Shown in pieces: positions 1 to 25,500 of a stretch of 64,000 nucleotides of DNA (position 1 is the first letter of the stretch; every line of letters begins with the position of its first letter). Both the position numbers and the translations under genes were made by a program. Source of the DNA: Schmidtea polychroa. Its lineage: Eukaryota. The stretch spans positions 61,690,001-61,754,000 of the forward strand of contig CM097886.1 of NCBI GenBank assembly GCA_044892525.1, read 5' to 3'. The notes beneath the pieces were generated by a model. The model had not been told where the DNA came from. It did no database searches and saw only the letters and a program-made list of their open reading frames with translations.

Positions 1-164
1 AATCTAATATTTCATTTTAATATATTATTTTAAATCTTATATTTCATTGTATAGACCAAGGTTTACCAAACTTTTTCAGAGACGGAACACTTGGCAAATT
101 TGAAAATGTTGGCGGAACACTTAGCTTATTTTTTAAGTTGGGTAATTCATAATAGTCATAATTC

Positions 165-800: not shown

Positions 801-1241
801 TATTTAGTTAGTTATTGCGCAATGATATTATTAAAAGATATTACAAATCCCAGGAAAATAATTGCATCCGATAGAACCAAATAAAGATCGTTCACTCTGA
901 ATTTTTGTGAATTAACAATGAAACCTAACTTTTTTATAGAGACCCCTAATTAAAAATATTATGGATTCTGTAAAGTAGTTCAATTTTACTACAAAATTTT
1001 AAGAATAAATTTATATTTGCAATTTCTTTTCTTTTCTTTTTTCAAATGAAAATTGACTAGCCAATTCAACATTTGTGATTATTTTTGTATTTAATCTATT
1101 GTCACTCGTAAAATTTTATAAAATTTTAAATAAAAAAAAAATATTAATTTTATGGTGAGTCAAATAAAAAATGTATCTGATCATTTTACTGATTAAACAA
1201 AATTTTGTAAAATAATAGTGATAAATGAAAATTTTTCATAC

Positions 1242-2202: not shown

Positions 2203-2822
2203 TAATAGACTAAATTAATTTTTTTAATTAAAGTTTATATATTTAAAATGGTTAACATGTGTTAACAGTACTAAAACTTATTGCGGTAATTAGGCCGATT
2301 AGATAAATTATCGAAAAGTAAAGTTTTAAACAATTGATTGCATACATTACATAAAAAATACATAAAGTGCCGCTAATTTTATTTAGTATTAATAATTTAG
2401 TATTAATAAAACAAATAAAGTCGATTTCACATATAATCAAACCATTCTTTAATATTAATTATTAATCGATCTTATTTTATGAAAGCGTTCTTATGATATG
2501 AATATAGGGAGGGCGGTATTTCTTGAAATATCCGGAGTATTGAAATAGTGTGAATTTTACGATTGGTGAAAATTTTCAAGACTTTCAATATCCACCAATC
2601 AGCATTTAGTGTTTGACAAAATTAATGTTGGCAAAAATCGAGGAATGATGAAATCGTTTCGAAAATAAATATGTGTGGTTTTAATCGAATTTAATTAAAA
2701 ATTATGTTTTTGCAGTTCGTGTGACATCAATCGAATTATGATGTACGTTACAAGTAGTGCCGGTTCTGGTGGGGGTGAGCAGCTGCTAGAGACTGCTGAT
2801 TATAAAAAATCTCAATTTCTCA

Positions 2823-3036
2823 NNNNNNNNNNNNNNNNNNNNNNNNNNNNNNNNNNNNNNNNNNNNNNNNNNNNNNNNNNNNNNNNNNNNNNNNNNNNNN
2901 NNNNNNNNNNNNNNNNNNNNNNNNNNNNNNNNNNNNNNNNNNNNNNNNNNNNNNNNNNNNNNNNNNNNNNNNNNNNNNNNNNNNNNNNNNNNNNNNNNNN
3001 NNNNNNNNNNNNNNNNNNNNNNNNNNNNNNNNNNNN
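2823..3036. other. assembly gap (N run)
   Basis: Run of N. Confidence 1.
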
Positions 3037-4612
3037 TGAACTCTGTAAAAACATTACGTTTTTAAATTAATATATTTGTTCGTCCTATCCTATGTAAAAT
3101 ATGAATATTTTTGTATTTTTCCAAAATTTTTTTTAACGAAATAAGAGGGCGACAAAAAGTTAAGTTACACACGGGTGCCCAGGTACCCGAAACCGACCAC
3201 TGATTTAGGTCAAAGGGCAATGTAAATTTATTTTACGTTATCGCATTTTAAAGTTTCCTGTAATTGATGTTAAAAAGTGAGTTTCTGCAAAATTGAAATA
3301 TTTGAGAATAAGTAATTTTAATTAAAATTGTTATTTTGTTTGGAATAAAAATAATATAACAATTTTAGTTACAATAAAAATATATCAAAACTTTAAATCA
3401 TATAAAGATAGAGTTACTTCGGAAATTTCACAGAAAAGTAAATCTTCCTAAAGGAGGTTAACTTAATATTAATTCGTTGATATTTTATGGGGTGGTTATT
3501 ATTTTAGTCATTATCTTTCATTAATTGTTTATGGTGAATTCACACATAATATATTCGTCCAAAAATAAAAAAAAAATTTTCTCTTAAGGGATAACGTCAA
3601 TAATTGTGGTTTAAACCGTTTTACTAAGAGTTTCTTTAAAAAGTCTACCAAATTTAATACTTAATTCTTATTTATCTTTTACTTGTAATTATTAATTCAT
3701 TGATTGTCAAAAAATGAATTTTGTTTATTAATTTGAATTTGTTAAAATTAATTAATTTGCAATTCTCGAGACCTACTATCAATTAAAAATTACTTTTCCA
3801 TTGCAGACTCTTTCTACTTTTCCCTTCAGAATATGTCAAATTTTACACTGACGCCATTAAATAATTTTTAATTATTTTGCACAATCCTGAAACTAACTCC
3901 AAATTATGTGTTAACTACAACAGTAGGTAACAGTTAAAAATATATTTTAATCTGTCCTAGATAATATGAAAAAAGACAAAAATATTAATGAAATTTGTTT
4001 AAAAAGAACTTCACATGTTTTAAACAATCAATGATTAATTTTCTCATTTGAAAACAGTTTGAAATAATTATTTGAGTTAAAAAATTGCCAATTAATTTAA
4101 ATTCTGAGATAAAATTAGAATAAAATCTAGAAAATTAATCCAATTATTTATTTTTCACATTCAATTAAAAAATTCAATTCTGCTTGTTTCAATTAAATGT
4201 CTATTGTGTTTTAATTATCTACGAAATATATATTAACAAATTAAATATCTAATTATTTATTTAGATTATTTATTATATAGTAATTAAGTGTAAGTGATAA
4301 TAAGTAAGGATAAAACTACAAACGATAAAAAACAATTCAAGTGATACAATGAAACTAATGATTTAATTATTTCTACTTATTTTCCTTTAAATCAGCTGAA
4401 ACTATGACAAAAAGCTGGTTTAATAAATAAACTGATATTAGTTAGACAATATTATTATTATTATTATTACCAACAATTGGCATGAATAGGAAAAGTCTCA
4501 ACATTATCTCACTCTATCGATTTTTCTCTCCCATTCAGTTGGTTTGTCAACAAACTCAGTTATTGATGGAAATTTTTAACAAATCAAATTCATCTATTTA
4601 ATAACAGGTTTT

Positions 4613-5350
4613 ATGAAACAAGCAAACGTTGATTTAGAAGATGAAAGTTCTAAAGATCGGAAACGTGAAGATGATAAAAGAATCGTTTTCGCAGTAAAAT
4701 ACACATGGATATCATTAATCGGTGGAGGTTTATTATTCATATGCGGAATCGTATTATTTGGATTAGTTTTCAAATTTCATGACGCCGAACAGCTCATTAA
4801 CAACAAAAACAAAAGCCAACGATCAACGAGTCTTGTTATGACTTTGATTTTAAAACACGTTTCTCCGTTTCTTTGTGGAATCGGTGCGTTCTCTATAATC
4901 ATTAGCGGTGTAGTTAAGCTAGAGATATATCAACAGAAAATCCGACTAAGAGAAGTATTCGATTTGAAACCAGAAAAATCATCAAAATTCCAGGTAAAAT
5001 CTTTTCGAAATTGTTTCAATCAAATCAAAAGAAATACGACGGTGAATCATCTTGAAGAAAAGAAACAACTCAACAGAGTATTTCACAGATTTCCCACAAC
5101 CAAAAGCAGTAATAAAACGTCTGATTTAGTTCGGAATAATAATGTGATTCAAAGAAATATTAAAAACCATTTGGATATCAACAGTGATAGGAAATCTAAA
5201 AATTCAACAATTCAACATATTCTGTCAGCCGTTGGGTATTTGCCACTATTTTTAGGTATAACCGATATCGACGATAAAGCCATATCCCGAAAACCATCAA
5301 TCTATAGAAGCAAAGAGAGTATAAATCATTTAAAAGAGGATGTAAACTAA
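4613..5350 (+). CDS. two-transmembrane membrane protein, weakly TMEM200/DUF2371-like, with a long basic cytoplasmic tail
   Basis: 245-aa uninterrupted ORF in very AT-rich DNA. Two hydrophobic segments (YTWISLIGGGLLFICGIVLFGLVF; PFLCGIGAFSIIISGVVKLE), the second resembling the TMEM200 'P..MGIG.F.FI.A..V..E' pattern. An acceptor 'aacag' at 4603-4607 suggests a small upstream exon (e.g. ATG 4482-4494, MNRKS). Confidence 0.7.
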   Translation: MKQANVDLEDESSKDRKREDDKRIVFAVKYTWISLIGGGLLFICGIVLFGLVFKFHDAEQLINNKNKSQRSTSLVMTLILKHVSPFLCGIGAFSIIISGVVKLEIYQQKIRLREVFDLKPEKSSKFQVKSFRNCFNQIKRNTTVNHLEEKKQLNRVFHRFPTTKSSNKTSDLVRNNNVIQRNIKNHLDINSDRKSKNSTIQHILSAVGYLPLFLGITDIDDKAISRKPSIYRSKESINHLKEDVN

Positions 5351-6539
5351 AACTAAAAATCATTTTATTTTTCGCTTTCAATATTTTTTAAATTCTAGTT
5401 TTTTAAATATAAATATAATTTTCATTACAAAAGTAAATTGATTAAAACAATTCATCATTAAAATACAATTAACAAAAAAACTCTAAATTAATTTCTATGT
5501 TAAATTGCTTTATTGTTTGAGAAATAGCGGGAGGCTAATTTAATTTGATTTTTTCACAATTTTTAACTAAAAATTTTAATAAATTAAAAACAATAATGGT
5601 CAACCAATTTTATTACCGACTAAATATTTAAAAATTCAACTAGTTTTGGTAAATAAAGCTTCAAATATACAAGTGGTGTTATGAGTATAAATTTTAGTCT
5701 TTGTCATGATTGGCATGTTTTTTAAACATCGCCAAACCTGAGATTCTTGTGTACATACTGACATACAGCCATGGAGTGCCATACAGAAAGATGAAGAATT
5801 CACTGATGCATGATAAGCGTGGTAAGTACTCATCAGTATTCTCATCAGATACAAACAAAATTACTAAATAAAAGACACGCCTTTTATCTTATAATTATCG
5901 CAAGCTGTACAAAACAGAAACCGTTTTTCTGAGCCTTATTCATAATCATATTACACTTTAATAATTTATTACCTTTGTTAATAAATTATGATTGTCACAG
6001 GATGTCCTGGATAACTTAGCATATTCGATTTCATAGACAAATGCTTGTGTAAAGACAGATCCATATTTAAATACACCAACTTCTGTTTCCTTCGCCATTT
6101 TTACCCGGTAAAAATCAGTGCTTCAGAAATAATTTAAATTTTTTTAAATCTAGCAACTCCAAGTTGAAAGCAAAATTTATAACAGACCGAATAGGATATT
6201 ATAATAAAAATGTAAAATACATAAACGGTTTATTTTAAATTAAATTTTTTTAAGTGATTTGTTTATATATAGTAATAAATTAAATAGAAAATGTTTACAA
6301 AAATTTAATGTGACATGTTCTAAAGATGCTGAAAATGGATACAAGAAATTGATGATACTTCTAGTAATAGACCTTGACATCAGCAAAATAATTTTGATAA
6401 ACATCCTAAATATGTAAATGATAATGAGTTTGATAGCATCGGAAGATACCAAAGAGAAATTATTTACAACGAAAGTTGGGGTTTAAAACCTTGGCAGTTT
6501 GAGACCATAAATTCAGGAAACAGATAAGGGATACAAGAT

Positions 6540-7510
6540 TTTATTGAATAGCTCCAAAATGAAAATCACAGTCTAATAAATGTTTTTGGCATCCTGTTGA
6601 GAACCAAAGTTGCAAATAACTACGATTTGAGAAGTTTACCTTGAATTTATTGGAGGAGTTAATAAAATGTAATTGTTTGAAGTGAAACATTTGGAGATAA
6701 ATAATATGGGAACTGATATAGTCAATTAGATTTCTTAGACTTCGAGCATACACAAAGAGCTACAAGAGAACTCGGTAACTAGGAAGCTACAATTAAAAGT
6801 TGAAAGATTTTTATGGTTTCAAAATTTGATCTTGGATTTACAATATTAGTCATTCATAAATCAAAAAAAAATGGAGGATTGATTACGCATACTGCTCGAA
6901 GACAACCTATACACGTAGAAAAGAAAATAAATCTTATCAAAGGGTTAATGAAAACACAAGTCATTAGGAAATGTAAAAGCGCTTGGAAGGCTCCGTTAAT
7001 GAAAGATGGAAACATCAGAATATGTATTGATTACAGGGTTCCAAAACTCTAAAAAAAAAGAGGTTTCCCGATTTCTGATACATGATGCTTATTAGATTAT
7101 CTTGCAGATTCAAAATAAATTTCTTCATTTGACCAAGAACAAGCTTATTACCGAGTTCATGTGGCTCCAAATCCTAAAATTAATTGCTCTCGGAAGGAAA
7201 GTTTTTTTCAACAGATAAACTTTTGAATTAGCAATATGTATTATTTGTGAAGGAGTTTTTGTCTATTTAGATGTCATTTTAATATATGGAAAAACAATAG
7301 AAGAACACAATATAATGCTGGAATTAAAAACGCAGAGTTAAAGATTAATCCGAAAAATGCAAGTCATAGAAACTAATAAATTCTTCTCGGCAATATTGTA
7401 AATGCAAATGTTATTCAAACAAATGATTAAAAGCTTAAAGAAATAAAAAATGCAAATATACACAAATGTACAAAACAGTTATGACCGTTCTTAAGATGTC
7501 GTTCTTTGAC
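6540..7510 (+). mobile_element. degenerate Ty3/Gypsy pol fragment (protease end to RT)
   Basis: ORF 6813-7052 contains RRQPIHVE...IRKCKSAWKAPL..KDGNIRICIDYR; RT remnants (YLDVILIYGKTIEEH) follow with stops. Confidence 0.75.
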
Positions 7511-7970
7511 ATAAGAATACATAATGTTAATAAGGTTAATACAATGTCATATAAAATACGTCAAAATCTTGAAATATAGGCAAGTCGAATTTTTTGTTAT
7601 AATTTAGATTTTGTCCTTTTATTTAATTATTTTATTTATTATATTTTATTAATTAAACTACTTTATTTTAATTTCTTACTTTATTTAATTATGTTTATTT
7701 TTTATATTTTATTTTGTTTGATTTACTTTTAATAAATTGTAACAAGACCGTGAATTATTACAATATCATTCCGATTAGAACAAAAATTTGAAGTAGTAAT
7801 AACTTGATTTTAATATAAAAAACTAATATAAAGATTAAAAGAATATTAAATTTTTAATAAATGAACACGGAAATTATAATTACTGATTATCTAAATTTCT
7901 CTTAAATGTTATAATGCAATTGTTGACAATAAATAAAATTGCCAAATTAAATAATAAGCCAAATAATTTG

Positions 7971-7972
<2 letters not shown>

Positions 7973-8022
<50 letters not shown>
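7973..8022. repeat. (AT)n microsatellite, about 25 units
   Basis: Perfect dinucleotide run. Confidence 0.95.
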
Positions 8023-8026
<4 letters not shown>

Positions 8027-8559
8027 TTTAATTAATTTTTCAGGAGTTTTAGATGTTATTATTATTATTTGGAATTATTTCAATATAATGTGAGTTTTAT
8101 TATTATTTTATTAAGTAATTAAGTAACAAATACAATTTATTAATTTATTAATACAGTTTATTAAATTTTTTATATTTATAAATTATATTTCTGATTGATT
8201 CTTAGCGAATTCTTAATAATCGCCCGAAATTATAAAAATCTATAGAAATATTAAATTTTAAATTTAGGTTAATCTAATTTACGATTTTCTAGTTTTTTCC
8301 CAACATCGAACGGCAAAATTGAGATTTCAAGGAAATGTGAAATACTAAAAAACTATTAAATTTATTAAAAATTTAAGATAAATCTTACAAAATAATGTCT
8401 ACATTATCTATAGAACTCAAAGTTGAGTTTTCGGAATTTTCGTTATAAGTTTTTTCATTCATTTTTTTCTAAAAAATTCTAAAAATGTCTGTAAATGATT
8501 GATTATAGTGCGTTTATTCATTGCAACGATTCTACATATCGAAAAATTGCATGCCTTTA

Positions 8560-10000
8560 TTACTATGTGTTGGAATCCGTATCCTTGCAGAGATTTGAAA
8601 ATAAGCGACTGTTAAGGGCATGGCTCTTAATAAAATTTATAATCTTTACAGCATTCTGAAGCACATCGTTCAATTCTGGTGCTAATTTTTTTGATGCAAG
8701 GGCCTCTCTATGAATAAGACAGTGAGTAAAAGTTATATGATCATAAGGAGCAGCTTGAAAAAATGATTTAAAACCAATATTTTTGCCCGTCATCGCTCTT
8801 GCACCATCTGTGCATATTCCACAGCAATTTTTTCATTCTAAACCTTCAGTTTTTAAAAATTCGTCAACTTTACAATATATGTCTTTCCCTGTAGTATGGT
8901 CTTTCATAGGACGAGAAAATAACAATTCTTCCTCCACGTTTTCTTTATAAACGTACCTGACATATACTAACAACTGAGCCAATTTAGTAATATCCGTTGT
9001 TTCATCCAAATGAATTGAAATTTTTGGGCTTTCTTTAATTCTTGCAATAAGTTGCACTAATTGGTCCTTGTTAATATCAAAATTCTATTCGCGACAGTGT
9101 CGTTCGACAAAGGAATTTTTCGAATATCATCGCCATATTTACTTTCATGTAGTATTTCTAAGATCTTCTCCGATGGTGACCGGCTTTTTCTTTTTAGCAA
9201 TACAGTATGAAACTTCATATGACGCTAATAAATATTTTTCATTAACGGTCATAAATTTTTGAAAGGATTTTTTTTCTTTATTTAAAGATTTATACAATCT
9301 TTCAAAATATTCTTTTGGTTTATTGACATACGAAACATGCTTTGATTCAAGATGTCTTTTTAATTTTGATGGTTTCATACTCTCCGCAGCCAATAATTCA
9401 TTGCAGATCAAACAAAGAGGTTGTTCATTACCATTACAAATTTGAAATGTAAAGCCAAATTGAAGAAAAGACTCATCATATTTTCTTTTTCGCACATTAA
9501 ATGGCTGTTTTTCAATACTTTGTCCTGCTTGAGGAGAGTTTGTAGCATTATCATCTGCGTCATTATCATTCTTATTTAAGTTCAGCCATTTATCCATGGC
9601 CAAAAATTATTTTGATTCTAAAATCCAATAAATATATAAAAATAACATATTGCATATAATAATTGTCATTAAAAAATGTCATTAAATTTAATAACACATA
9701 AAAATTTCACAAATATTACTTTTAAATGAAGTTCAATAAAATTAATATAATTTTAATAAATAAACAAAAGTAGTACATTAATTTATACTATAAATTTTAT
9801 ACTATTCTGATATATTATAAATTAATCGAAAAGTAATTTTCGAAAACAAAATATTTTTAGAGTTAAAAAACATTAAATAGTCATTAATTTTAAAAACAAA
9901 ATCGTGTATTTAAATATTTGGCATTAAAAATCTCTCGCGACCCCAGAATTATGCTAAGCGACCCCATTTGGGGTCGCGACCCATAGTTTAAGAAGGCCTG
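8560..10000 (-). mobile_element. hAT Buster-type DNA transposon, 5' half, frameshifted transposase
   Basis: ORFs 9145-9603 (BED-type PLCLIC...KPSKLKRHLESKH), 8833-9057 (SIHLDETTD) and 8563-8793 (CTDGA upstream; HCLIHREALA). Terminus CAGGCCTTCTTAAAC...GGGTCGCGACCC at 10000, flanked by an nnnTAnnn 8-mer (cattatag, 10001-10008). 3' end missing. Confidence 0.9.
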
Positions 10001-10345
10001 CATTATAGGATGCGTTTATTCAGTGCAAACTGGTGAATAACACACACAGACAAATTTGCACGCACTTTTCGTATATTAGATCTTTCGAGAAAAACTGTAT
10101 TGGAATTATATTGGTAAATTTTGTTGTATAAAATAAAATTTTTAAAAACAAACGTTTTCATCTTATTTCATATTTATACAAGAACCAGTACTGTTGGGGT
10201 TTTCAAATAGTGAGACCTCAACATCATTATTTTGATATTGCTACATTACCTCAAATGTATACGTTTTTTCAAATATTTAACAGATATACTGTATACGGTA
10301 TTGTTTTTTAACTTATAATAATATCGCTGAAATGAACATGTAGTA

Positions 10346-10455
10346 CCGTATTTTACCGCATATAACCCGAGGGTTATACCAAATTTTAAATACCCCATGG
10401 GGAAGGTGCGGGGCATATATGGGTGCGCGTTATCTGCGTACGAGGGAAAATACGG
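10346..10455. mobile_element. Tc1/mariner-superfamily (pogo-like) MITE, 110 bp
   Basis: TA|CCGTATTTTACC ... GGAAAATACGG|TA: terminal inverted repeats with TA on both sides. Confidence 0.75.
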
Positions 10456-11049
10456 TAACTACTTTCATTTGGATATTGTAATCAATATATTCTTTCAAAA
10501 TAGCTACTCACCTAAATTCTGCAAGACAATTGACTTTTAAAAAGATTTCACCGTAGCTCAACCATTCCACCAATACCTACCATTAATCACATACTTGGGT
10601 CATGTTTTAACTTTACTGTCAAGTGCAGCGTTTCTTCTAAGCTGGCGCCTCAATCAACAATTCCACCAATTTATCAACAATTTTTAATGAATTTTCAAAA
10701 GTAAATCATAAAGACCATGACCATGACCATTTCACTTACATTTAAATTCACAAAAACTTTCAAACGAAGTATAAAAACCAGTATTAGTTGGTTTTCTCTA
10801 TTAAGAGAAGAAAGAAATTTATACACAAATCCACGGTGCACAAAATATTTAGGCACCTAAACGCAAAAAATAAAAGCGTGTCAACTGCGCAATTGGATAT
10901 GTTGTTCTTATTTAATTATTATAAGTTAACGTTTTAATAGTTCTACACCAAAGCGCATTTGATTTCGATGGGGTTCAAAAATGGATTATATGGCAACTTT
11001 TCTATTTGAATAGTCAATGAAGATATATTATTGTAAATGGATTAGCTCA

Positions 11050-11230
11050 TCATTGAAAATTGAGACCTCGATTTTTTGGTAAATTGTTATAAATTCTATT
11101 GTCTACTCGTGATCTACCGAAGCTCTTGTTCGTCCATCTATTGAAGAGCATTCATCTATGTATTTCTTGAAATGAAATAGTCGATTCTGATGAAGTTTCT
11201 GACATATTCTTGTATATTTTTTATAATTAA
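11050..11230 (-). mobile_element. possible mariner transposase N-terminal remnant
   Basis: Decayed 'DEQ-RSGRP'-like codons (gacgaacaagagcttcggtagatcac); weak. Confidence 0.3.
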
Positions 11231-12870
11231 TTAATTTTAAATGGAAAATATTTAGCTAATTGAATGTCCACATGATAAATCAATGTCCTATAGTGTGTAT
11301 TTTTTATTATAGAACCGTGTTTGTATGTATTTATTTATTTTTCTTCCAACAGCGATTTTTTCTATCTTTCTATAGTGTAAGAGCTAATTTAATGTCACCT
11401 AGCTAATTCAATGTCCCTTCTGGCTATGACACACATACATTTATTATAAGTAAGTTAATATTTATATTATTAAATATGCAAATCAATGGCCATCTGATGA
11501 TAATCAATTGCCGGTTGGTGTAATAGTCATTTTGAAGTGATCTAGTAATTACTTTTCATGTTTTTGATTTAATATTTTTTTAAAATAATTTTTTAGAATT
11601 TCTGATGGATTTCATAAGAATAAAAGTAAAATATTTATTTGAGAAAGCAATAATGTTACTTTTCAACATTTTGATGACTTTATAAATGTAGTTTTAATTT
11701 TCGAATTTTATGTAATAATTTTTCCTGGTAGCAGCCGGCAATTCTTAACACAAATTATACCAAAAAACATAAATGAAGAAAAAAACTTCCATATTTGTTT
11801 GTATGGAATATTTGGTGACGTGAAAACCTCAAAGATTTCTTCTTAATTCTTTTTTTATATTCAAAATAAGTTTCCTAATTATTTACAAGGCCTAATATAC
11901 CTTATTAAATGAAAATTAACGTAACTTAATGGTTGAATATATATTATGGGATAAAGGAAATTTAATGTTTTCAAGATAATTGAGGTTATTTTATATTATT
12001 TTTAATTTTAATCCAGAAATCCAATTGTAAAATTGAGTAATCTTATAGGACAGATAAATTGGTAACGTAATTACAATAATAAAATTTAATGGGTTTGTGT
12101 CCATTTCAAAATACTTATCTGATGAAATAAATTTGTTAAACAAATAAGTCAATAATTTCGGAATTTTTATTCTAAACTAAAAGCGTAAAGTCGTAATAAG
12201 TAAATAAAAATAGGAATTAAGAGAATAAAATCTAAATACGAAAAACATAAAGAAATGGCATAAAATATTAATTAAAAAGCGAAAGAAAATTAGAAAACAG
12301 GCAAGTAAACACCGAATTATTAACGAAAATCCACAAAATATACACAGAATTATAGGAAATAAATAAATTAATTAATTAACAAAACAAAATAAATAAATAA
12401 CTCAATAAAAACATTTAAAATATAAGAAACAAAGAAAAATAGCTAAAATACAACATAACTCAGTCTTAATTGGACAAAATATACTATATAAGGTAAACAC
12501 TTAATTTCTAACAAATCCTTACAGGTAAAATTTTATGCATTGTAAAACGAACTTCTTACAAATCCTTACAAGAATCAAACTCTTACAAAATTCATTACAG
12601 AACTTATTCATCAGCGATTATCAAGAACTCTACAAAGGTATTACAGGAACGTTTACTGAGAATTCGAACTTATTTATCGAACGGAGAATTGTTTGAACGA
12701 TAACGGTTTAGCAAGCACTGACGGATATTACTCGATTGATTGCCATATTTAATTCAGTCTAATAGTTTGAAAGCTAGTCGAAAGGAACAAGTATATGATT
12801 GAAATTTATTTTTATTGATTGATATTAGTAATTGAATGTTATAAATTTTCATTAAGACAAAATATTATAT

Positions 12871-14215
12871 TTAATAGCATTTCATGACTTTTCTCTTCAC
12901 GGAACTGGTGACGATGCCGTTTGCGAACTCTGAGTATGATGGACATGAACCGAAAGCGCGAGAACCATGAATTAATAATGTAGAATTTTCTGAGAATATG
13001 CGATTCGCATTCACACCAAGCTGATAGTATGAGCATGAAATCAAATGTAGGAGAAATGTGATGGAAAGCGATTGAATCGTTTTGTATCAACTACCGTGGC
13101 AGAATAAACGTTCATAATGAGAAAATCGGATGCGACACATCATACTCAGAATCCAAAGGACATGGTCACCAGGTAGATTTGATACATTTATAATTTTTTT
13201 AAAAAATCACTGATTTCATTTATAAATCTTTATTCATACACATTTTTATTTTCGTTTAATTACTGTGGGTGTGGTGGATCCGTCTATCGTGGTGCTCTGG
13301 AGATGGTCGGTAGCAATATCGGTGGTCCCCAGGTAAGCCACGGTAAGTGGAAAAACCAATGAGGTAGATATATGAAAAACAAAGTAGTTTCATGAGATAA
13401 GTGTCTTCATCGAGGAGCAGCCAAGTAAGGAATCGGTCCGTTACAGTAGTTCTGCGAGAATCACCAGTTGCCTTGCAAATTTCGATCGTTTTGGAAGATA
13501 GAGAAACGCATGACCTTTAGAGAAAACTTTAGTCCTCAAAATGCCAGTCGTAATAGTATAGTGAGAAACGTTCAATCCAATCGTTAATAAAGAATTCACA
13601 TCTTCAGATCTTCTATCGTGGAAGGGCCAACTTCATCAAAAATCTCGTAATTATTTTCCAACGTCCAGTTACTTGTCGTTTTTATCTATGTCAACAAAAG
13701 ATATGATTTCTTACACAAATTCACTAATCTACTTTTCGGCATATAGATTCAGGCGTTGTGTGAAGATCGGTACAATTTTGCATTTCGCGATTTCCGCTCT
13801 GATAAACTTTCGAATTCGTTCACCAAAACGTCGAAAATTGATGTAAATAATCTACATATCCGATCAATCGAGATTTAAATATTTACAAAACCATGCTATT
13901 CCGAGACCGCCTTTCTAGATTTTCCAACGACGATCGGATCACTAATGTAAACGAAGTCAGATAGATTTGGACGCTAGTTTAGGCAAAACGATAAATCTTG
14001 TGTAAATTATCAACATCAAATAAATAAACTTGAGAGCAACATCGTCTATGCTAAAAACCAACCGAATCTGACATAAACAAATTAGAACCAGACGAAGCTA
14101 GTTCTGGGTAAACACCGTTAATAACTCAAACGATTGTTTATCATAGGAAATATAATGCACAAGATAATATCCGGAAGAATAGATCACAACCAAGATAAGG
14201 AAATAAACAATACAC
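12871..14215 (-). pseudogene. decayed ORF array: putative glycoprotein plus two signal-peptide-like ORFs
   Basis: Hand translation shows a hydrophobic N-terminus (CIVYFLILVVIYSSG), sequons NWT/NVS/NST, an intact 45-aa ORF at 13393-13256 and a broken ORF at 13219-12871. Several stops and frameshifts. Confidence 0.4.
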
Positions 14216-14586
14216 AATGATTTAATTAAAATAATAATAACAATATTTTACCCTTGAATTCTTCTCTTTTTATGAATACGCATTCTATTTAAACGATTAT
14301 TAGCAAGAGTAAAACTTCACCGCTAACAATAAAACGTTCAACGCGCATCACAGACTATAATTAATAAGATGTAAGGTTTCTGTAAAAATTGAGTAATAAT
14401 AACTTCTTAAACAAAATTAATTGATCAAATCTCACCCTCAATGATTAAATTTTCCGCGACGAAATCCGATTTGTACGATATGGTGAGTAAAAATATATTA
14501 ATGTTGTCTATACGCTAGAGAGGTGAGAATAACATTTTATGACGAATTTCCTTGAATTTCGATGAACCATCCTAATTAATTCAGAT

Positions 14587-15343
14587 ATGTGCGAACCAAG
14601 TTTGCCACCAAAAGGGCCAAAGCCATGCCTTTCTTGTGCAGACAAGAATGTAGGCATCAGAAAACTGCATGAATATATAGGGGTTCTGGAGAAGTGTATT
14701 GAGACGCTCGAATGCACGTGGTTCTCCCCGCCACAGATGAAAGAAAAAAAGACAAAGATACTGCGACTGGATCACTGTAGAGACAGTCTCCTCGAGGAAA
14801 GCCGTTGTCAGAGGTTTACAATAAAGGATCAATCGGAAGCACTACACCAAGTGTATTCTGAATCCGAAATAAGGAGAAGAGTAAGAGAGTACCCAATCAA
14901 AGATGTTCTCCCTACATCACCCAGATGACGAACAGCAGTTACCTTTAACCAGTTGCACTGGCCATGAATTTAATTTTCCACCAATAATCGATGCAGTCTT
15001 GTCCGGGTCATCAAAGGAGCACGGTGTACCGAAACCAGTCGCCAAGGAAACAGCTTCTACTTCGTCATCTGGCCGTCTAAACGAGTTCACTACATCATCT
15101 TCGAAAAAACGAAAGCGCCCCTCTCGAGCTGAAAGGAACCAGAAACGCCGAGACGAGATCGCCGCTTTAGAGACGTCATTATTTGCCGCTCAGGCTCTGA
15201 GCGCACAAGTGCTGAAAGAAAAGATACCAACACCAAAATCAGTTTACCGAATCGTTCAATCTGGGGCACTCCATCTTCCGGAAGACGCTCAGCTACAGGT
15301 AGATATAGATGCCATGTTAGCCGAAGAAGAAATGCCCTTGTGA
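14587..15343 (+). pseudogene. frameshifted ORF (~250 aa), CxxC plus coiled-coil N-terminus and basic NLS-like tract; unknown family
   Basis: ORFs 14587-14928 and 14903-15343 join by removing one C at 14920-14922 (..VLPTS-PDDEQQ..). Contains PCLSC and KKRKRPSRAERNQKRR. Confidence 0.5.
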
Positions 15344-16470
15344 GTGACAAACGGAAGACATCTTCAGCACCTCTCATGACTTGATAAATATCCTCCCGAA
15401 ATCTGTACAAATTTGTGTAACATTTAATCGTTAAGTATCTAACTCGTTGGAATGAATTTTCTGTCTTATATAATAAATATTGTTAATGTCTGTTTCGTGC
15501 TTTATTATTGCTGACTAGCTTGCCTGAGTTAAATGTTGACATATCCGGTAGTGAGTAAAGTCGTGCCCTTGGACCAGGGTCATACTGTCTTGACTGAATG
15601 AAAGTTGAGGTAAGTCCTTCTATGTCACTCCTGAACCCGCACAGTGAACCTTACCGGGAGTAGTCCTAACGCAAGGGCTCACCTGCTGGAAAGTTCGACA
15701 CATCATCAGAGGCACTCGTATGGGAGATTATTGTCAAATTATGAAGGTTGCTTGGGAACCAAATATGAGCATATAAACAATTTTTTCCTAAGTAACCAAC
15801 ACATTGAAACCAAGAAAGTACTAGCCTTAGCAGTCGTGGCATCAAAAACTTGCATTTGTCTAAAAGCTAACCACATGGTATAGTACCAGCGTCACTTAGT
15901 GATCACGGTGAGTTAAAATATGCGTTTTGTTTGTAATTGTAGAAATATGGGGGTCATTTACATTTTCAACCAACCTAAACCAAGCATAATTATTGTTAGT
16001 TATATAAAAACCAGTGCAGTTTTGAAAAAATAAAACTTCAGTTATATATTTTAAAAGTACTATATGAAAAAGTGAGCAAATCTAAATTAAAATTAAAATA
16101 TTTTAGATAAACTAATAAATAACTTCCAAAAAAAGAATTTAAAATTAAAATTAATTTTGAGCTTTTAACGAAATATGTTTATATTATATATATAATAAAA
16201 GAACTTATTTTAAATTTATTTCGAAAGAAATTTTGTTATTTACTTTTCTAATATTCTTCCTTTTACTTCAAGAATATAATTGACCTTGATTGATATTTAA
16301 ATTTATCAATTGTTTAAATAAAGTTAAATTATGATAAATTTGATAATGCCTAACATTATTTTAATTTTATTTATATAGAAATATTTTTAAAACAAATTAT
16401 ATTTTGATTTAAAACATGAAATTATTTATTTGGTGTTATATAGATTTTAAAATATTTAAATTTTTTAGTA

Positions 16471-16558
16471 ATGTTAGATGGTACTGCCCCAGATGCTTCT
16501 CATCCCATCGTACAATGGCCTAATAACAAGAGTGATTATATTATTAAAGGATCTATTG
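16471..16558 (+). CDS. OXSR1: OSR1/SPAK exon 1
   Basis: [30 protein letters not shown], donor gtgaat; an acceptor-like ttttttag lies 2 nt before the ATG. Confidence 0.85.
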
Positions 16559-19500
16559 GTGAATGATTTATTATTTTATTTTTCAATACAAATTTAAGAT
16601 ACATAATGTCAAATATTGATTTAATAACATAATATTTTTATGAATTATATAGATTTTTCAAATTCAATAATACACAAGATTTCTTATGTTTTATTTCATT
16701 TTTCTAAAAACTTTTAATGAATAATAAAATTACTTGCTGAAAAATTTATAATTTTTGGTTACGCGATACGCTTTATACTTAATGATTTTTGAAAAGATGT
16801 GTGTTATCAATCGAGTAAAAAATTGCTACCTATTATTCTTTCTAATCCAGGTAAAAGAGTTAATATTTGTAAGTTATATTTACATATTTACTAATTACAG
16901 TTTCAGAGTTCAAATATAAGAATTATAATTTTACGCCTGATAAATATATCATAATTGAAATTCTACTAGGACTGATAATTAATAGTAAAATATTTTGATT
17001 ATTTTATCGATATAAATCGCAAGCTATGGTTTCTATTGTTAGAATACTAATAATAATAGATTTAGTAATATTCCTCTGTGACATTCAATTGTTATTTAAA
17101 TTATTATCATATTTGAAATTCTTGAAATTATATAATTTAAATTATTATTTAAAAATCAAAAATTTAATTTTCTATCTTCAAAAAAAAAATTTCCAAATTT
17201 CCAATATTAAATTATTAAATTAGATTGTTTTCTAAATTTAGAATTTTCGATTACAATAAAATTGATTAAAAACTCCAGGTTTTTACTTATGAAAATTAGT
17301 TTCATTTGTAATTTCAAAAATTATAATTTTATAAAAAACTAAAATTTTTAAATTTTGTTTTTAGTTCCTTTCTAAAGGAGAATTTACAGTAAAATTTTAT
17401 GTTGCAAATAACTACTGGGTAAATGATTTAACTTATTCATTTACATCATAACCTAGTCTTATTAACACTTTGATTAATGAAAAACGAATATTTCTCGGGG
17501 AAATTTCAATTAGATTGCATACTATTCTGTAATAAATTAATCTCAAAATTCTGAAAATAAGCTCAACTCAATCCTTTTGATATTCGTAAAAAATACATTT
17601 CCATCACCAACATTCAATAATGAAAATTTGAAAACAATTTAAGGATATATTCTCTTTTAAAATGCATTAAAATAAGCAAACAAATTATGGAATTTCGTAG
17701 CACATTTTCTCTAATTACCTTAACATTATTTGTTATGTTATGCTGTGGCTCTGAATAGCTATATTGTCATTATGATGAAATGTGTTTGAGTAATTTTTAT
17801 TTGAAATCAATGAAAATTAATGGATCAATATAATTTTTATTTGAGATTTTGTATAATTAAATTTGATTTTTTTATTAGTTTGAATTAAAAATTAAGTTAA
17901 AAAGATGATAAATTTAGTGAAGATAACAACTCATGTTCGTCAACAAAGTTTAAATTACGTGGTGCGTTCAATATGTATATTTTTCCGGGTTATTTTTCAA
18001 TATAATACTGATTGTGCTCCACACATTTTCTCAAGTGACGTAAGAGTTCCGAAAAGGAATTTTTAAAGAAAATTAGGCTTTGATTTTTCAAGAAAGTTCC
18101 GCATCCTGTTGAAAATCTCAAACACTTCTGTAGATCTTTCTTCGCAAAAGTTTTTTTTATATACCTGAATAGATAAAAGTCGCTGGGTGCAAGATCAGAG
18201 GTAATCTAAGAGAAAAAAAAATTCATTTTTCTTCATCACTGCCAACATTTCCGCGTTTTTGTGGATTGGAGCGTTGTCTTGGAGGAGCAATAGGAGGAAG
18301 AGACCGTTTGGGTTTGGATGATTACGTTTAATGTGTCCACAAGATTGCTGTAAAGAGTGGGATTTTTTCGGAGACCTTCTGCGGCAGAACCCGTTCCAAT
18401 TGTACCACTTTGATCCGTAAAAATTGTTAACATCAATGATTTTCGATATGTACCAGATCTAATCTTCCTGAAACTCGTTTTTCCAGTGTGTTTCCATTCG
18501 CTGAACTCACGCTTTGTCTCAGAGACAAACAGATATCAACTTATGTCAGATGATTGACAAAAGTTTTATAAATAAAATATTAAATCTCAAAGAGAAACTG
18601 AGATTTGAAAAATACATTGTAGGGACTAAGTTAAATAAGACTTTACTGAATTGATTAACTAATATAATATTGTATATTAATTAATTTAGAATTTAATAAG
18701 TATGGTATGTAATTAATAATTGTAAATATTATATTAATAATTTAAATGTAAGTATAATTATAATATAATTATATAATTTAAATTAACATAATAATTGTAG
18801 AATGATGTTTTCTTGCTCAAATAAAATCTTAAAATAATCTTGTTTGAATGTTGTGAATAATAGTAAATTTTTGAATATCGAATTTTTAGTTAATTTAAAT
18901 GAATACAATCAATACTCGGCCCACACAGTTTAATATAAATATTAAACTAAAATAAAATATTAAAACATTAACATCTGTGCACATTTTGAGCGTCACTTTG
19001 AAAATATTCTGTAAGATATGCAATTATTTCTATTTGCTCCCAGATTTCTTTAGTTAAATATAACTTATTAAATCATATACATTTTCCATATAAATAATTC
19101 TAAATTCCTTCTATTGGAAGTTTGGTTTCTTAAATTAATAACATCCATATTTTAAAAACAAAACAAAACTATCCTTCATCTTTAAAATTGTCGAATTTTC
19201 TCAAGAAGTCTATTCCTCCGATTACCTTTGGTGAAATCTCTTTGGCCACAATAAATTCAATTATTCTCGCCTCTTTCGTTCCCACTATTTGAACTGTAAT
19301 ATTTACCTTTCCTACTATCGATACCGGTGACTCATTTGCACATCTCAATTTAACATAACATTTTTCTAAATTAAACTTTTCTATCTTCTAATACACTTTC
19401 ATCCATCACACTGATCTTTGCTCCTGTATCTAATAAACAACATACTTCGTTCTCATTGATCAATAATGTGACACTTGGTCTACCATTTAATTTATTATAT

Positions 19501-22500
19501 TTAATTATATTACTATTATAATTTATATCATTAATATTACAAACATGCTCTACAACATTTCCAAAATCATCTAACCTCAATCCAATATTACACCAATCAC
19601 TATAAATATCTGCATCGGAGACGCATTTACAATTATCATCATTACTTATATATTCATATTTCTCATTATTTAATACATACAAACAATCATCAAAACAATC
19701 CCCATTCAACATATAACTCATACTTACTGCAGTGCTCCGATCACCTCTCGTGGTGGAGCATATTCATTTGGGTATTGATTTTCATGTTCTTCTTCTTCCA
19801 TTGCCGCAAATGGTTTCTGATATTGTCGGTTTCTGAAATTTCTGCAATTTCCTTGGAATTTTCCCCGTATGTTTTCTTGTTCATTTTCTTTTACATCTCT
19901 GAAATTCTTTCTTAATTGGAAGCACTGGTGTTTGAAATGACCTGCTCTGTGACAATGATAACATTCGAACATTCTGCTCTTCTATGGCCTTCTTCATGAC
20001 ATGCCCAGCATCTGAACTTTGGCCTATTGTTTGTTTGGAATTCTTGATTATTTAAATTCGATTGTTTGTTCTGATATTCTCTATTCTGTTTTGGCTCGCT
20101 GAACGTATTTCTTCTAGGCATATATCTGCGTAATATTGGTCTTGCTGGAATATTTACAGCCTTTTTTTACCATATCCGCATATCTCGTTTCAGTTCCCAC
20201 AACTGCTATCGAGTCACTGTTTCGATTTAATTCTTTAATTACTTTCTCGTGTTTTTAATTCTCTTTTTCATTTCATTCACAGATTTATATTCATTTAATC
20301 TCAAATCTTTTTTTCAAATCTTGGTCTCCTACTGCATTGAATATGAGAAATTTTTGAAGTTCTTCTTCATTTAACTCTTGTTTCAGAATTCGTTTTGATA
20401 ATTTCTCAATTTTTTCGCAGAAATCATCAGCGGAATCATCTCCTTGTCTATAATCTAGCGCTTCACTTAAGTCTTCCATCAGATTCATTGGTTTTTGAAG
20501 GCTTCTCTCAGTCTATCCATATAATTTTGTTTCTTATCAGTTGAATCATATTTCTTAATTGCATCTGTTGATAAAAAAGCCTTGACAAATCTACATTTGA
20601 AGTCCTCAGCTATCGACAATTCGAAAAATCTTTCGGTTTCTTTGATGAAATCTTCAACGTCGGTTCCCATCTCAAAATTTTCTGGCGCTTTGATAAAATT
20701 GGCCATCGTGGTCGCCATATTGGAAGTTTGGTTTCTTAAATTAATAACACCTTCTATGATCTCATTTTTGTTATTGAAACAATCGAATAATGCGTTCGTA
20801 GTCAAAATATGGAAATTTTTTAATTATATATAGTGTATACTGAACATATTGCGGGGGCAAATTCCATCCCTCAACTGCAACGGAAAATAGAAATTGCGTT
20901 GCAATCAATAGATTAAGGTGAGCTGCGAGCTGATTTTCTGACTATCCGGAAACGCCTGAGAGCTATTGATCGAAATTGTTCAATTTCCATTGTTTAATGG
21001 TTTGCATTTATTGTTATGACCATGGGAAAATCAAATAATCTATTCCTTTTGTTTTGCCTTTTTTTGCTTCATAGGGTTATATTGAAACTTATTCCAGTTT
21101 CTCTTCCACGTCAGTTATTAGAAATCAACTTTAGAAACTTTAGATCACCTTTGAGCTTAATAATTCTTAGTTTTCTGTTTAAAAATGTTGCTAACAATGT
21201 ATTCTATAATCAAAATCATACACAAATTACTGATGTCTTGAATACATTGACTGCATATCTAATATTGTGAAAGTCATTGATGATCACCAAACTGGGCCTT
21301 GACCGTCAATGTGTTAAAATATTTCACTGTTGATTTTTTAGAAAGCCTACTGTTAGTTTGAACTAAACATAATTACGTAACTTTAAGCTCTTGAGTCATT
21401 TTAGTGTTTTTGAAATATTCGTTTATAATTATTCGTACTTATATTGTAATATATAGCATATACTATTACAGGAAAAATAAACTAAGTCATTTTTGAAGTG
21501 TATTCATAGTAAATATTTGCAAAAATTATGTCCAATTTGTATGCTTGTTAGCAAAATTACTTCATTTTCTTCTTTTTCCATAGTCATTTAACATTTATGT
21601 TTCGAATTGATTTATAATAAAATATCATATAACATTCCAGTAATTTCATATTCTTCTTATTTAGAAATAAATCTTTATAATTAACATAAATAAAAAACCT
21701 ATTCGATTTTATTTCATTAAATAAATAATTCAAAAATATATTTAAAAAAATTTAATATTTTTCTTATTGAGAATAACATATTTTATAAACATATTTTAGG
21801 CACACTAAATAAGTACTATTATGGAAAGATGAATTTAACTCCAAAGAACTTTATATTTGTAACTTCTAACCCATTTAGATTTTCTTTTTCAAATGACCTT
21901 TCAATAACATAAATTATTGTTACGACACATGGCTAACTCTAGAAAAGCTTTGTTGAAGAAATTCGTTGAATAATTATTGAATAATCATTCTTCAATCCAA
22001 TTGTGATGTGAAATGTCAATTTCTCAGGGCTCATTTATAATTGTTGTTTAATTTATAAAAATCTGATGCGGCTGAATCATGACTGTATAAGTGACATGAA
22101 ATCACGCAATTCTGAATTATGACTCTTGATAAATCACTGATGCGAATTGGTGCATTGTTATGCAAATTATGTAAATTACACTTTTCAACTGCAATTTCCT
22201 GGTTTAATGTATGAGTTCTGAATAGTATTCACCATTGTATCAGCCGTATCAAGATTTATGAAAATCATGACTTTTACGCAACATAAAATAGAAAGTATCA
22301 AGGTTATCTTGAGTGACTAAATATAAAACTTATAGATTCAAGACCTTTCAACAAAGTCCATGCACCCAACGTCATTAGTGTTCCTGAAGGTGAAAAGCAT
22401 GAACATTCGATAATGGAAAATTCCCGATAAAAAATGACAGTTTTTTACCAGGCAATTTCCACAAAATTAAATTCTTGTTAGATTCAGAGATAAGCGTGTT

Positions 22501-25500
22501 AAGTAGCGTCTTATCTTCTGAGAATATTCATGTTGCAATTCAGGTTTCGATGTTGCTTTCACTAGTCATGAAGCGATTTTTCATCATTTCAACAGAAAGG
22601 AATTTCGAATTGGCAATACAATTTTCACCTATCTGAAACCTGCTTATTCAACAATTTCAAGTCGACATTGTCAGAAATGGTATATAGTAGTCATAAGAAA
22701 CTGATGTGTGACCACCTATAAATGCATTTACCCAGTTATTTACATTTGATAAGATCTTTCTGATTGATGGACTGCAACAACCTGTGAATTTCACTTCTGC
22801 CTTTCTTTGGCAAACAAAGAATTTTATCACACTTCGATAATTTACCAGTCAAATCATGACAATTTTACCTGGGGTACTAAGATAAAGAAAAATGACAGTA
22901 ATACAAACTTAATTTTCGTCATATATATTTATATATGGCTACTTCAAAATTGAAAGTAACTAAGTTATTATTTTTAAATCTATATTAGACCAGCGTCCTA
23001 TTAAACGCACCACGTATTTTCCACTTTCCTTTCAAATTTCTGATTTTATATTAAAACAAACCAGCTATCATATATTTAAAATACACGTTTTTTATACATT
23101 TTTAAAAGAGAGTCTGTTACATAATTCAATAAAATAATTAGACGTCCGGAAGACCTGATTGTTTATTAGTTGAGAATCACTTATAACATTTTAATAGGAC
23201 ATAACTGAAAAATGTATTATTTACACTCTAGTTTTATTCTGTTTTAAAATTAAATTCCCTAAAAACATTTTTTCCTTTCTAAAACATTTTAAATAAAGTT
23301 GGTTCAAAAAATATTAATTCATATAAAATAAAATCTTATTTTTGCAATATTTTTTTAATTCTATTTTTTTTAATAAAATTTAATTAATGTAATTAATCGG
23401 AACTATGTATGTATTCAAAGTTTCAAGTCAATTTTATAAGTGAAAGTCGGTCAAAATGTGAATACAAAATATTTTACTCTATCTAAATAACAAATAAAAT
23501 TTGATTAAAGTTTGTTAAATATTGATATGATCGTTTTTGGAATAACTTAATTTTTACATTAATTTTGAATATTTTTTATATATTTATTTTTTTAACGAAA
23601 TACCTTGTTATTGTTATTGGTATTTTAATTTCGAAGTGATAATGTATAAAATCAATGAAAGAATTTTGAAAGAGTTGAGTTCTTACAGAATGTGTTCGTC
23701 AATCTATATTATCATTTTCTAAGAAATCTATATGTTCGTTAGGTCAAGGCGCAACATCAACTGTCTATGAAGCTTCTTGTCCCATTTTAAATAATAGAAA
23801 ATGTGCAATGAAAATAATAAATTTGGAAAAATGCAGTAGCTCAACGTTATTAGACGAAATTAAAGTAATAATTTTTTATTCAAAAATTAAAAATTTTGAA
23901 ATATAGAAAGAAATTAGAGGGATGAGAAATTTGAAAAACGAAAACATAGTAACTTATTATGCATCTTTTGTAGCTGGTACCGAACTTTGTATACTCATGG
24001 ATTTATGTCAAAGAGGTTGTTGTTTTTATAATAGATTTAGTTTAATTCATTTTGCAGGATCGTTATTAGATATTATAAAAGCTACTCAAAATAAACGTGA
24101 TATCAGTTCTGGGGTTCTTGATGAAAACACTATAGCTACAATTATGAAAGATGTTCTTAAAGGATTGAGTTATATTCATGAAAATGGCCTTGTACATAGG
24201 TCAGTTTAGATATATTACATTAATATTGTATGATTATACGAGATTAAATTAATAGATAATTCTAACCTCAATTGACATTGCTTTGGATGCAAATCTATAA
24301 TTTTGTTTCAATGACGCGTTATTATAAAAATTATATTATTAATCGGTTTTTAGTAAAAATATTTTTAAATGAATTTGTTATTAAAGCTTTAAAATGATAT
24401 TCGATGCAATTTCTATTGAAAGACTAGTTTTCGAATTTTTAGGCTCTCATTGGTTTCATTTGAAATATATTCCAGTGACTTTGTAATCATATCCTGAACT
24501 TGATCACTCCATTGTTAGGTCACTTCGAATATCACAATTATACTGTTTTTGTTATCAAATCAGGCATATCAGTAACTTATATCATTGCTTTGTCACCAAA
24601 TCGATAAAAATATGAATGAAGTTATTAATGGTATTCGATGGTTGTAAAATATTACACTAAACCAAAATTTATTTGAATTTCTCACATATATATATATATA
24701 TATTTACGTATATCCCCTTAGACCCCCAGTACGTAGTGCACCCAATAAATACTTAGAGTCGACTAGATATAATTACTTTATAAAATATACCGTATTAGCC
24801 CGAATAAAACGCAACCCCGAATTTAGAAAAAAATACTCATAAAAAAATTAAAATTAAGGGAAATTCAATCAGATAAGCGTTTGGTTAGGCAATTTAAAGT
24901 AATACATAGGTTATATTCATGATAATAAATTTAATTAATTTAAACCAAAATTTAATAAAAATAAAATGTTAAATATTGTCGCGTTATATTCGGGCCTATA
25001 CGGTATATTATATGGATTTAACTTAAATATTTATAAGTAATAAAAAGTGTTGGTTTTTCTAAGCTAATTTTGTCTGGAAATTATGAGGAAGTTGATAGAT
25101 TCTTAAAGATTTAATTAGAAATTTTGTTAAATTTAAAAAAATATTTTTATTGAAAAATATTTTAAAAGGAAAATTGAAATTTGTTTAACCCTTTCGCACC
25201 GACTTTCCGCTAATGACACTATGCTAAATTTATATATTGGAACTTGTTAATATTGACCTAAATATGAAATATTCTCATTTTTGTAATCGTGGCGCTTCTG
25301 AATATCCTAGAAAGTCCTGGGATAATAAATAAACTTTAACACCGCAAATTGCTTTGAAAATATCCCAGTAGGATCATGATGAAAGTTTCTGGGACGTATC
25401 GTCCCAATAGGGGTGAAAGGGTTAAATAACAAAAATAAGAAAGACAAGTTTATGAGTGTAAAATTTATGGAATTATTTAGTGATTTGCAAACAGATATTA

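Follow-up and report, generated by a model that had tools for sequence, protein, structure and literature searches.

What kind of DNA is the decayed block, with open reading frames on both strands, that lies at positions 12200-15962 of a 64,000-nucleotide stretch of the Schmidtea polychroa genome (hereafter, the window)? A preliminary description, whose coordinates are kept here, took it for a compact gene array left by an endogenous virus or by the accessory region of a giant LTR retroelement. Its observations are partly confirmed and its interpretation is partly supported. The block is real, repeated DNA. The mobile-element part of the proposal stands insofar as this repeated DNA carries one or more genuine genes of mobile-element type outside the core set, as would suit an accessory region; the viral part finds no match in BFVD, IMG/VR, PHROGs or phage records, libraries that are incomplete for invertebrate viruses. 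The host kinase reported downstream is real: Pfam Pkinase matches two downstream exons, and one contig joins its first coding exon (about 16468-16560, plus strand, outside the block) to exon 23706. The upstream exon of the kinase is not found within the window, and the block lies either upstream of the kinase gene or inside its first intron.

The block is less AT-rich than its surroundings, as described. G+C is 0.33-0.52 in most 200-base windows of 12900-15800 and 0.15-0.27 in the flanks; it is raised without a sharp step, except in short AT-rich spacers, where it is 0.25-0.30. CpG, on the other hand, does not distinguish the block, with an observed/expected ratio of 0.89-1.54 inside it against 0.5-1.7 window-wide. 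Coding signal was judged with a codon model, using sequence shuffles as control. Compared with shuffles, the dense coding appearance attributed to the whole block holds for its right part and not for its left. In the right part (14300-15962), 8 ORFs reach 80 aa or more, where shuffles give 1.5. In the left part (12200-14300), 6 ORFs reach 60 aa (4.0 in shuffles, P=0.2), 3 reach 80 aa (1.0 in shuffles, P=0.05) and none reaches 100 aa; the codon model, applied to five segments of 12660-14250, finds no frame better than shuffles (P=0.17-0.78). No RT, integrase, transposase or capsid family is matched in any frame of the block, in agreement with the initial reading. Compared with itself across the window, the block shows no self-repeat. 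Rfam returns just two snoRNA matches (E>1), taken as chance, and no tRNA genes are found.

Parts of the block have paralogues, 82-85% identical among the matches listed, in contigs from two studies. These contigs, again among the matches listed, are 385-448 bases long, with 58-81 letters differing. The one over 13718-14165 (81 differing letters) is present in both DNA-like runs; others among those listed span 14701-15085 and 14904-15330, and some are collinear with the block on either side of 15344-15606. Short 85-95% pieces from run X7, that may be DNA, were left out. The A-rich non-coding stretch at 12200-12450 is repeated elsewhere: bin 12205-12405 has a summed contig depth of 1025/1110, compared with about 40 where only the own contig counts. 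Summed depth does not measure copy number, and bins of AT-rich sequence beyond the block also attain 150-750. Similarity is detectable no further left, and a related contig continues before 12201 with different A-rich letters.

The plus-strand basic, coiled-coil ORF with an AATAAA signal is present, in two pieces. The plus-strand open frames are 14566-14928 and 14885-15343. From its homologues, ORF A (14587-14928, plus strand) corresponds to the N-terminal half of an orphan protein, with predicted long helices and a coiled coil; from the codon model and a weak profile match, ORF B (14885-15343, plus strand, other frame) is probably the C-terminal half. Together (14587-15343) they are probably one frameshifted gene, whose presumed frame break lies inside the overlap 14885-14925. 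Both retain coding signal (codon model P<0.004 for ORF B), and the contig depth of ORF A, 18985/12697, is the highest of the block. ORF B comprises a linker, a basic region (~15089-15211) and an acidic tail; it aligns with the arginine-rich motif of the homologues, and its match to the family profile is collinear but weak (iE 0.15).

Upstream, a candidate leader intron (14483-14584, plus strand), proposed from a GTGAGT donor and a TTCAG acceptor, ends 2 bases 5' of the ATG of ORF A. Three of 16 homologous gene models have unrelated host sequence joined at one common point just before the methionine. Within 14300-15962, a region picked after looking, plus-strand GT[AG]AGT donors number 5 against 1.0 expected (P=0.0045). 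The AATAAA at 15472-15477 (plus strand), 130 bases past the ORF B stop, is a candidate polyA signal. The 1.3 kb preceding ORF A contain no TATAAA, and the minus strand ahead of ORF C, discussed below, has none either.

Judged by sequence similarity, ORF A belongs to an undescribed protein family. A HMMER search with it finds nine homologues (E 2e-7 to 5e-4), unlike word-index protein searches with ORF A and with ORF B, which return no match; a profile built without the window sequence matches ORF A at iE 1e-17. The family domain is present in 16 public gene models, and its core has nine invariant residues at 27-42% identity. Nine of the 16 homologues fall into at least three lineages, which suggests an old, diversified family. 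Fourteen of the models are fused to unrelated host genes, with 14 different host domains; the fusion lies at either end or in the middle, and internal pieces are missing from several homologues. Fusion to so many unrelated genes is the pattern of intronic transposon copies drawn into gene predictions. The homologues are singleton records wherever checked, and gag, RT, integrase, capsid or Maverick core domains occur in none of the 16. P0004, with adenylate kinase repeats, was removed from the homologues as a chance match, and 53 MCM loci, matched through the host part of P0013, have no bearing on the family.

Pfam, PDB and BFVD contain no entry for the family; the ESM Atlas gives no clear cluster, just unnamed or sub-0.9 leads, and JGI metagenomes give no relatives. 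Literature searches turned up no description of the protein, though the ORF may stand unnamed in Repbase, Grohme et al. 2018 or supplements. The protein is about 250 aa long, with a predicted N-terminal coiled coil of 90 residues, then an arginine-rich helix and finally an acidic tail. The AlphaFold model of ORF A (pLDDT 82, pTM 0.43) resembles generic coiled coils alone (VIA, best Z 5.5). Foldseek, suggested earlier as a way to identify the proteins, gives no match at E<=0.001 in viral structures and the PDB; two PDB sequence matches, MED9 (E=0.03) and AphA, were judged coiled-coil noise.

The arginine-rich motif is recognized by pattern in 9 of the 16 homologues, and in P0013 a helix (137-170) is predicted over it with pLDDT 77-89. 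The window copy has 10 Arg/Lys among 17 residues; this basic region is degenerate and fails the family motif pattern. The succession of coiled coil, arginine-rich helix and acidic tail suggests a nucleic-acid-binding trans-regulator, and the modelled protein likely acts on its parent element's own RNA or DNA. We take it to resemble retroviral export proteins of the Rev/Rex type and other RNA binders with an arginine-rich motif, phage lambda N among them.

To the right lies ORF C (15483-15842, minus strand), a candidate convergent gene of 119 codons with two internal stops and a moderately hydrophobic start. The codon model gives P=0.02 for 15486-15866 and P=0.003 for 15350-15900, segments picked after looking; contig depth at 15622-15822 is 3130/3305. 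No homologue of ORF C is found in family searches or IMG/VR. ORF C falls within the block bounded by TGTAACA and TTTACA (15416-15962) of the preliminary description, whose terminal words are indeed present at 15416 and 15962. Its LTR-like reading, however, is not supported by target-site and depth tests: the pair 15416/15962 has no target-site duplication, and the right 140 bases are not repeated, depth falling to that of a single contig from 15848 onwards in each of the two DNA-like runs, and over 15823-16023. No purine tract adjoins 15416 or 15962; TGG sites, possible primer-binding positions, are present. The TGTAACA...TTTACA block may instead be a convergent minus-strand gene.

The left half contains the announced TTACA array: six words at 12519-12645 (plus strand), or 6 per 161 bases where 0.29 are expected, the densest in the window and possibly a promoter or protein-binding array. 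An AT-rich spacer of 87 bases follows at 12791-12877, its low-G+C limits falling no more than 1 base from GT and AG (chance ~0.16 x 0.17), and fits a candidate plus-strand intron. The minus-strand polyA words noted previously are letters of this spacer. The segment 12878-13172 is G+C-richer, repeated (depth 719-1223) and coding-like, with +2 as its best frame (codon model P=0.27) and no protein family matched. A second AT-rich spacer, 13173-13265, has a plus-strand donor near its left edge and no canonical acceptor; a plus-strand intron and a minus-strand intergenic region or intron are alternative candidates. The minus-strand array of secreted proteins proposed for this region is not supported, as its ORFs score like shuffles and one spacer fits a plus-strand intron. 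Of the signal-peptide-like ORFs, one of 45 codons with a hydrophobic start exists at 13256-13393 (minus strand); its segment has a contig depth of 2234 at 13341 but no coding signal (P=0.78). The glycoprotein-like reading is unsupported, given 16-22 stops and just 1-2 sequons in each minus frame of 13250-14300. The interval 13400-14200, partly covered by the paralogous contig over 13718-14165, is a decayed coding-like segment with no recognizable product and no matches in protein family and PDB sequence searches. A leucine-rich-repeat reading of 13753-14481, made by eye, was rejected (no Pfam or PDB match, pattern P>=0.26), and PDB matches to mut-7 (E=0.49) and a methyltransferase (E=0.64) were dismissed.

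Our best explanation, held at somewhat less than an even chance, is that the block is the truncated accessory-gene region of a large mobile element, with a frameshifted gene for the element's own nucleic-acid-binding regulator. ORFs A and B would be expressed through a plus-strand RNA that is spliced and terminates at the AATAAA at 15472. The protein may oligomerize through its N-terminal helices, its arginine-rich helix would bind element RNA, in Rev-like export or processing control, or element DNA, and its acidic tail would contact host factors. The window copy is probably dead, its ends and core genes lost. Evidence against the explanation is that neither an LTR nor a primer site is established at the block, nor an adjoining purine tract or a target-site duplication, and that gag-PR-RT-RH-IN is absent from it and from all 16 homologous gene models; full-length copies could still carry these genes.

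For the parent class, a giant Gypsy/Burro-type accessory region comes just short of an even chance. The class is inferred only, because no termini or core genes were found, and is the least supported of our conclusions. Burro elements are ~25 kb internally and combine a 4,873-aa polyprotein with accessory ORFs and tandem repeats (PMC6431247, section 7). The block shares with Burro/GYPSM1 of planarians a high copy number in an AT-rich, planarian-like genome, along with tandem repeats and accessory ORFs that do not belong to the polyprotein. It differs in that the Burro domains listed there (MATH, BIR, ankyrin, BCL2, env, gag-pol) are not matched, and section 7 of that source names no arginine-rich accessory protein. 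In plants, Retand has repeat arrays, together with ORFs of regulatory type, in the interval from pol to the 3' LTR (PMC11963269); Retand (Tat) and Ogre resemble the block in their kilobases of non-core sequence, repeat arrays and putative nucleic-acid-binding regulator ORFs, but the block has no TRP28 (PF04195) match and an animal host. Repetition of the block is not specific to the Gypsy/Burro class. An intron-bearing gene in sense to a retroelement RNA requires an added assumption, either antisense orientation or export of unspliced RNA.

Introns are unproblematic for a DNA element, and the compact two-strand gene array, with the probable convergent pair of ORF A/B and ORF C, also resembles Maverick/Polinton accessory genes. 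The block could then be a fragment of these, and the orphan protein a DNA-binding regulator or an arginine-rich DNA-condensing core protein. The class is expanded in Dugesia (bioRxiv 10.64898/2025.12.11.693146). A PPxY word is present in 2 of the 16 homologues. Such words are typical of viral structural proteins. Nevertheless, we regard this origin as unlikely: the family has no relative in IMG/VR or BFVD, and core domains are missing from every homologue. The block holds no terminus and no polB, integrase, ATPase or capsid gene, long terminal inverted repeat or 6-bp duplication; the rest of the element would lie outside the window.

A composite is rather improbable. ORFs A, B and C would form one repeat, and 12200-14200 another, unrelated repeat or a captured intron-containing gene; alternatively, the carrier would be Helitron-, DIRS- or Penelope-like. 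Similarity does come in patches, depth dropping to a single contig at 12698-12746, 13716 and 14166-14513, and among the matches listed no contig joins the left half to ORF A across 14165-14700, although bridging was judged on the longest pieces only. The probable plus-strand intron, too, suggests gene capture at the DNA level. Against this, G+C is elevated on both sides of the spacers, and termini of any class are not seen. That ORF A/B is a member of an expanded lineage-specific host gene family and the locus a pseudogene is very doubtful. Host genes, too, have splice signals and a polyA word and encode conserved proteins, but the homologues are singletons where checked, fused at varying positions to 14 unrelated genes, several without internal pieces.

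Within the accessory-region explanation, the regulator may be compared with Rev/Rex. Common to both are an arginine-rich helix, predicted oligomerizing helices and a probable spliced mRNA, as well as one sub-threshold Pfam REV match among family members: P0009, one of ten proteins tested (E=0.0013, 19.1 bits against a cut-off of 22). This match may be compositional. The window protein has no Pfam REV match. The orphan protein differs in its length of ~250 aa and its 90-residue N-terminal coiled coil, and a profile including the basic region finds no Rev chain in the PDB at E<=10. A leucine-rich export-signal pattern is seen, by eye, in homologue P0001 only. No structured response element is found: 15500-15850 has no stable fold, folding z-scores for the TG...CA block are -0.44 and +1.23, and Rfam gives no match beyond chance. 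It is a long shot that a giant invertebrate Gypsy-type element independently evolved the gene control of complex retroviruses. If it did, a spliced accessory gene, part of a cassette whose genes occupy both strands, would yield a Rev-like arginine-rich protein, which would bind unspliced element RNA and carry it from the nucleus.

Accessory RNA-export control is known mainly from vertebrate complex retroviruses; if the protein is Rev-like, such control would extend to an invertebrate element. Under any reading, segments of the family deserve masking in gene annotation: this undescribed family is so abundant that no fewer than 14 public host gene models are contaminated by it. The family gives a tangible starting point for studying self-regulation in very large mobile elements.

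The block at 12200-15962, to the left of a host kinase gene, is a real, old repeat fragment; the protein family it carries is new, unannotated and of regulator-like build. The firm evidence for its repetition consists of long paralogous pieces, namely 13718-14165 (81 differing letters), 14701-15085 (58) and 14904-15330 (62), and of contigs in both DNA-like sequencing runs that match collinearly either side of 15344-15606. Among the matches listed, no paralogue bridges 14165-14700. The block is wholly or partly present in six of the 15 listed runs, from two studies, the best-matching run being possibly the window's own source; contigs were compared in four of the 15, at 80% likeness. In run X1, the window's own contigs lie at a depth of 40-47. 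The summed depth of the block ranges there from 89 to 18985, with its peak over ORF A (14587-14928, plus strand); summed depth does not measure copy number, and values of 150-750 also occur in AT-rich bins beyond the block. Similarity dies out between 15786 and 15848. In run X5, from the second study, near-identical contigs cover most of the block and one contig passes its right edge into a kinase exon, from which the insertion appears shared and old.

A search of 1.84 billion proteins with ORF A gives 10 matches at E ≤ 0.001, of which one, to a protein with adenylate kinase repeats, was discarded as due to chance. A profile of the nine remaining proteins and ORF A finds 11 proteins, seven of them new, which brings the homologous segments to 16. 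Unrelated host domains, each a different one, are borne by 14 of them: CRAL-TRIO, glycine cleavage P, SNF, ABC, L21, subtilase and actin by name, and seven found by Pfam accession, which we take to be sedlin/sybindin, MCM, tyrosine phosphatase, LSM14, ankyrin, M1 peptidase and DAD. Gag, reverse transcriptase, integrase and capsid domains are absent from all 16, and the homologue records looked up are unnamed singletons. This pattern suggests that gene predictors spliced intronic repeat copies into host genes. In three models, differing host sequences are joined at a common point four residues before the methionine, which matches a splice acceptor 2 bases ahead of the ATG in the window copy. 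At least 14 public gene models among the homologues P0001-P0018 read as chimeras of a host gene and a repeat-borne ORF.

The core and basic region occupy a single frame in the homologues and are split in the window over ORF A and ORF B (14885-15343, plus strand), with the frame break inside their overlap; this frameshifted copy was translated through the break with X. A profile built without the window sequence recovers ORF A (iE 1e-17) and, collinearly, the basic part of ORF B, at an iE of only 0.15. The tree of nine of the 16 homologues and the window copy contains two supported groups and one single lineage; the window copy has a long branch and an unsettled placement. No description of the protein was found in the literature searched, Repbase and Grohme et al. 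2018 lying outside that scope.

Nine core residues are invariant, including W45, P48, E71, R73, Q75 and R76. AlphaFold predicts core helices at 15-44, 48-89 and 92-101 (pLDDT 82, pTM 0.43); its model of homologue P0013 (pLDDT 63, pTM 0.24) also shows, between a disordered linker and a disordered tail, a helix at 137-170 that contains the arginine run. Structure searches return generic coiled coils only. The arginine motif is found by pattern in nine of the 16 homologues; the window copy misses it, yet has 10 Arg/Lys within 17 residues. Membership of the Rev family was rejected: the sole Pfam REV match, in homologue P0009, lies under the cut-off, and the PDB search gave no Rev chain. Taken together, the helices, the arginine motif and the structure, REV and PDB results give the family the predicted look of a small nucleic-acid-binding regulator outside the Rev family.

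The preliminary description saw dense coding on both strands; an excess of ORFs is limited to the right half of the block, where 14300-15962 contains eight of at least 80 aa versus 1.5 in shuffles. In 12200-14300 the counts are three versus 1.0 (P=0.05), no clear excess, and no ORF reaches 100 aa. Trained on 13 of the window's ORFs, a codon model favours the frames of ORF A (P=0.06) and ORF B (P<0.004). Plus-strand GT[AG]AGT words number 5 in 14300-15962 versus 1.0 expected (P=0.0045, the region chosen after looking). Across five segments of 12660-14250 no frame rises above shuffles in the codon model (P=0.17-0.78), a test that would lose power through frameshifts in so old a copy, and no frame of the left half, read with X, has a library match. 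Of the proposed minus-strand secreted ORFs, a 45-codon one with a hydrophobic start exists, beneath a depth peak; the array of secreted ORFs is otherwise unsupported. The minus-strand polyA words are present in letters but read equally well as T-rich plus-strand intron, given the splice edges of the spacers: AT-rich spacer 12791-12877 has plus-strand GT and AG at most 1 base from its edges, and in a second, ambiguous one a donor on the plus strand lies 4 bases from the left edge and one on the minus strand 1 base from the right edge. The block is indeed richer in G+C than its flanks and holds the TTACA array (6 copies in 161 bases versus 0.29 expected); its CpG ratio, claimed as distinct, is that usual for the window, an AT-rich, animal-type DNA in which CpG is not depleted.

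An LTR at 15416-15962 is not supported: the TG...CA pair has no target-site duplication and no adjoining purine tract, and the last 140 bases are unrepeated. Folding of 15500-15850 is no better than in shuffles. A minus frame across the interval is favoured by the codon model (P=0.003-0.02; one of nine segments, chosen after looking); it opens at ATG 15842, where repetition stops, and converges on ORF B. No homologue of this candidate gene, ORF C (15483-15842, minus strand), turned up in the libraries searched. At 6400-7750, T-rich sequence and a short TGTAAC...TTTACA piece come after a heavily decayed gag-pol-like remnant (identified by eye), so such words stand alone in this genome.

The right-hand neighbour is a protein kinase gene; in a single X10 contig its exon 16468-16560 is joined to one at 23706. 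The 24 letters upstream of 16468 in the transcript contig have no match in the window, which places the first exon beyond the window or within an N gap, and the block may then lie in an intron of the kinase gene. To the left of 12078, an X5 contig extends into an array of (GGGTTC)n, a variant repeat of telomere-like type. The short repeat at 11200-11522 is a different one, of very high copy number; it holds an internal 35-base duplication and exceeds a summed depth of 100000 in both DNA-like runs. The window also has a 256-codon ORF at 4580-5350 (plus strand), which encodes two hydrophobic segments and matches no Pfam family above the cut-off, and decayed transposon pieces, presumably Gypsy, Tigger-like and others. 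Two deleted Gypsy-type elements lie at 25422-28496 (plus) and 19112-20823 (minus); their LTR pieces finish in ...AATA, not CA, followed by a candidate TGG primer-site-like stretch.

Since the block shows neither ends nor core genes, we infer its element class. Burro elements offer room, accessory ORFs and tandem repeats, according to passages of PMC6431247, and the layout of plant Retand elements, as outlined in parts of PMC11963269, is analogous to that of the block. The main rival parent class is the Mavericks, for which part of bioRxiv 10.64898/2025.12.11.693146 is cited; piRNA silencing is reported for both classes in PMC8532177. It is improbable, though suggested by composition and layout, that a giant retroelement of an invertebrate encodes a Rev-like export factor. 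The block copy is probably dead. The broad idea of the preliminary description holds; its claims of secreted ORFs and of an LTR-like block do not.
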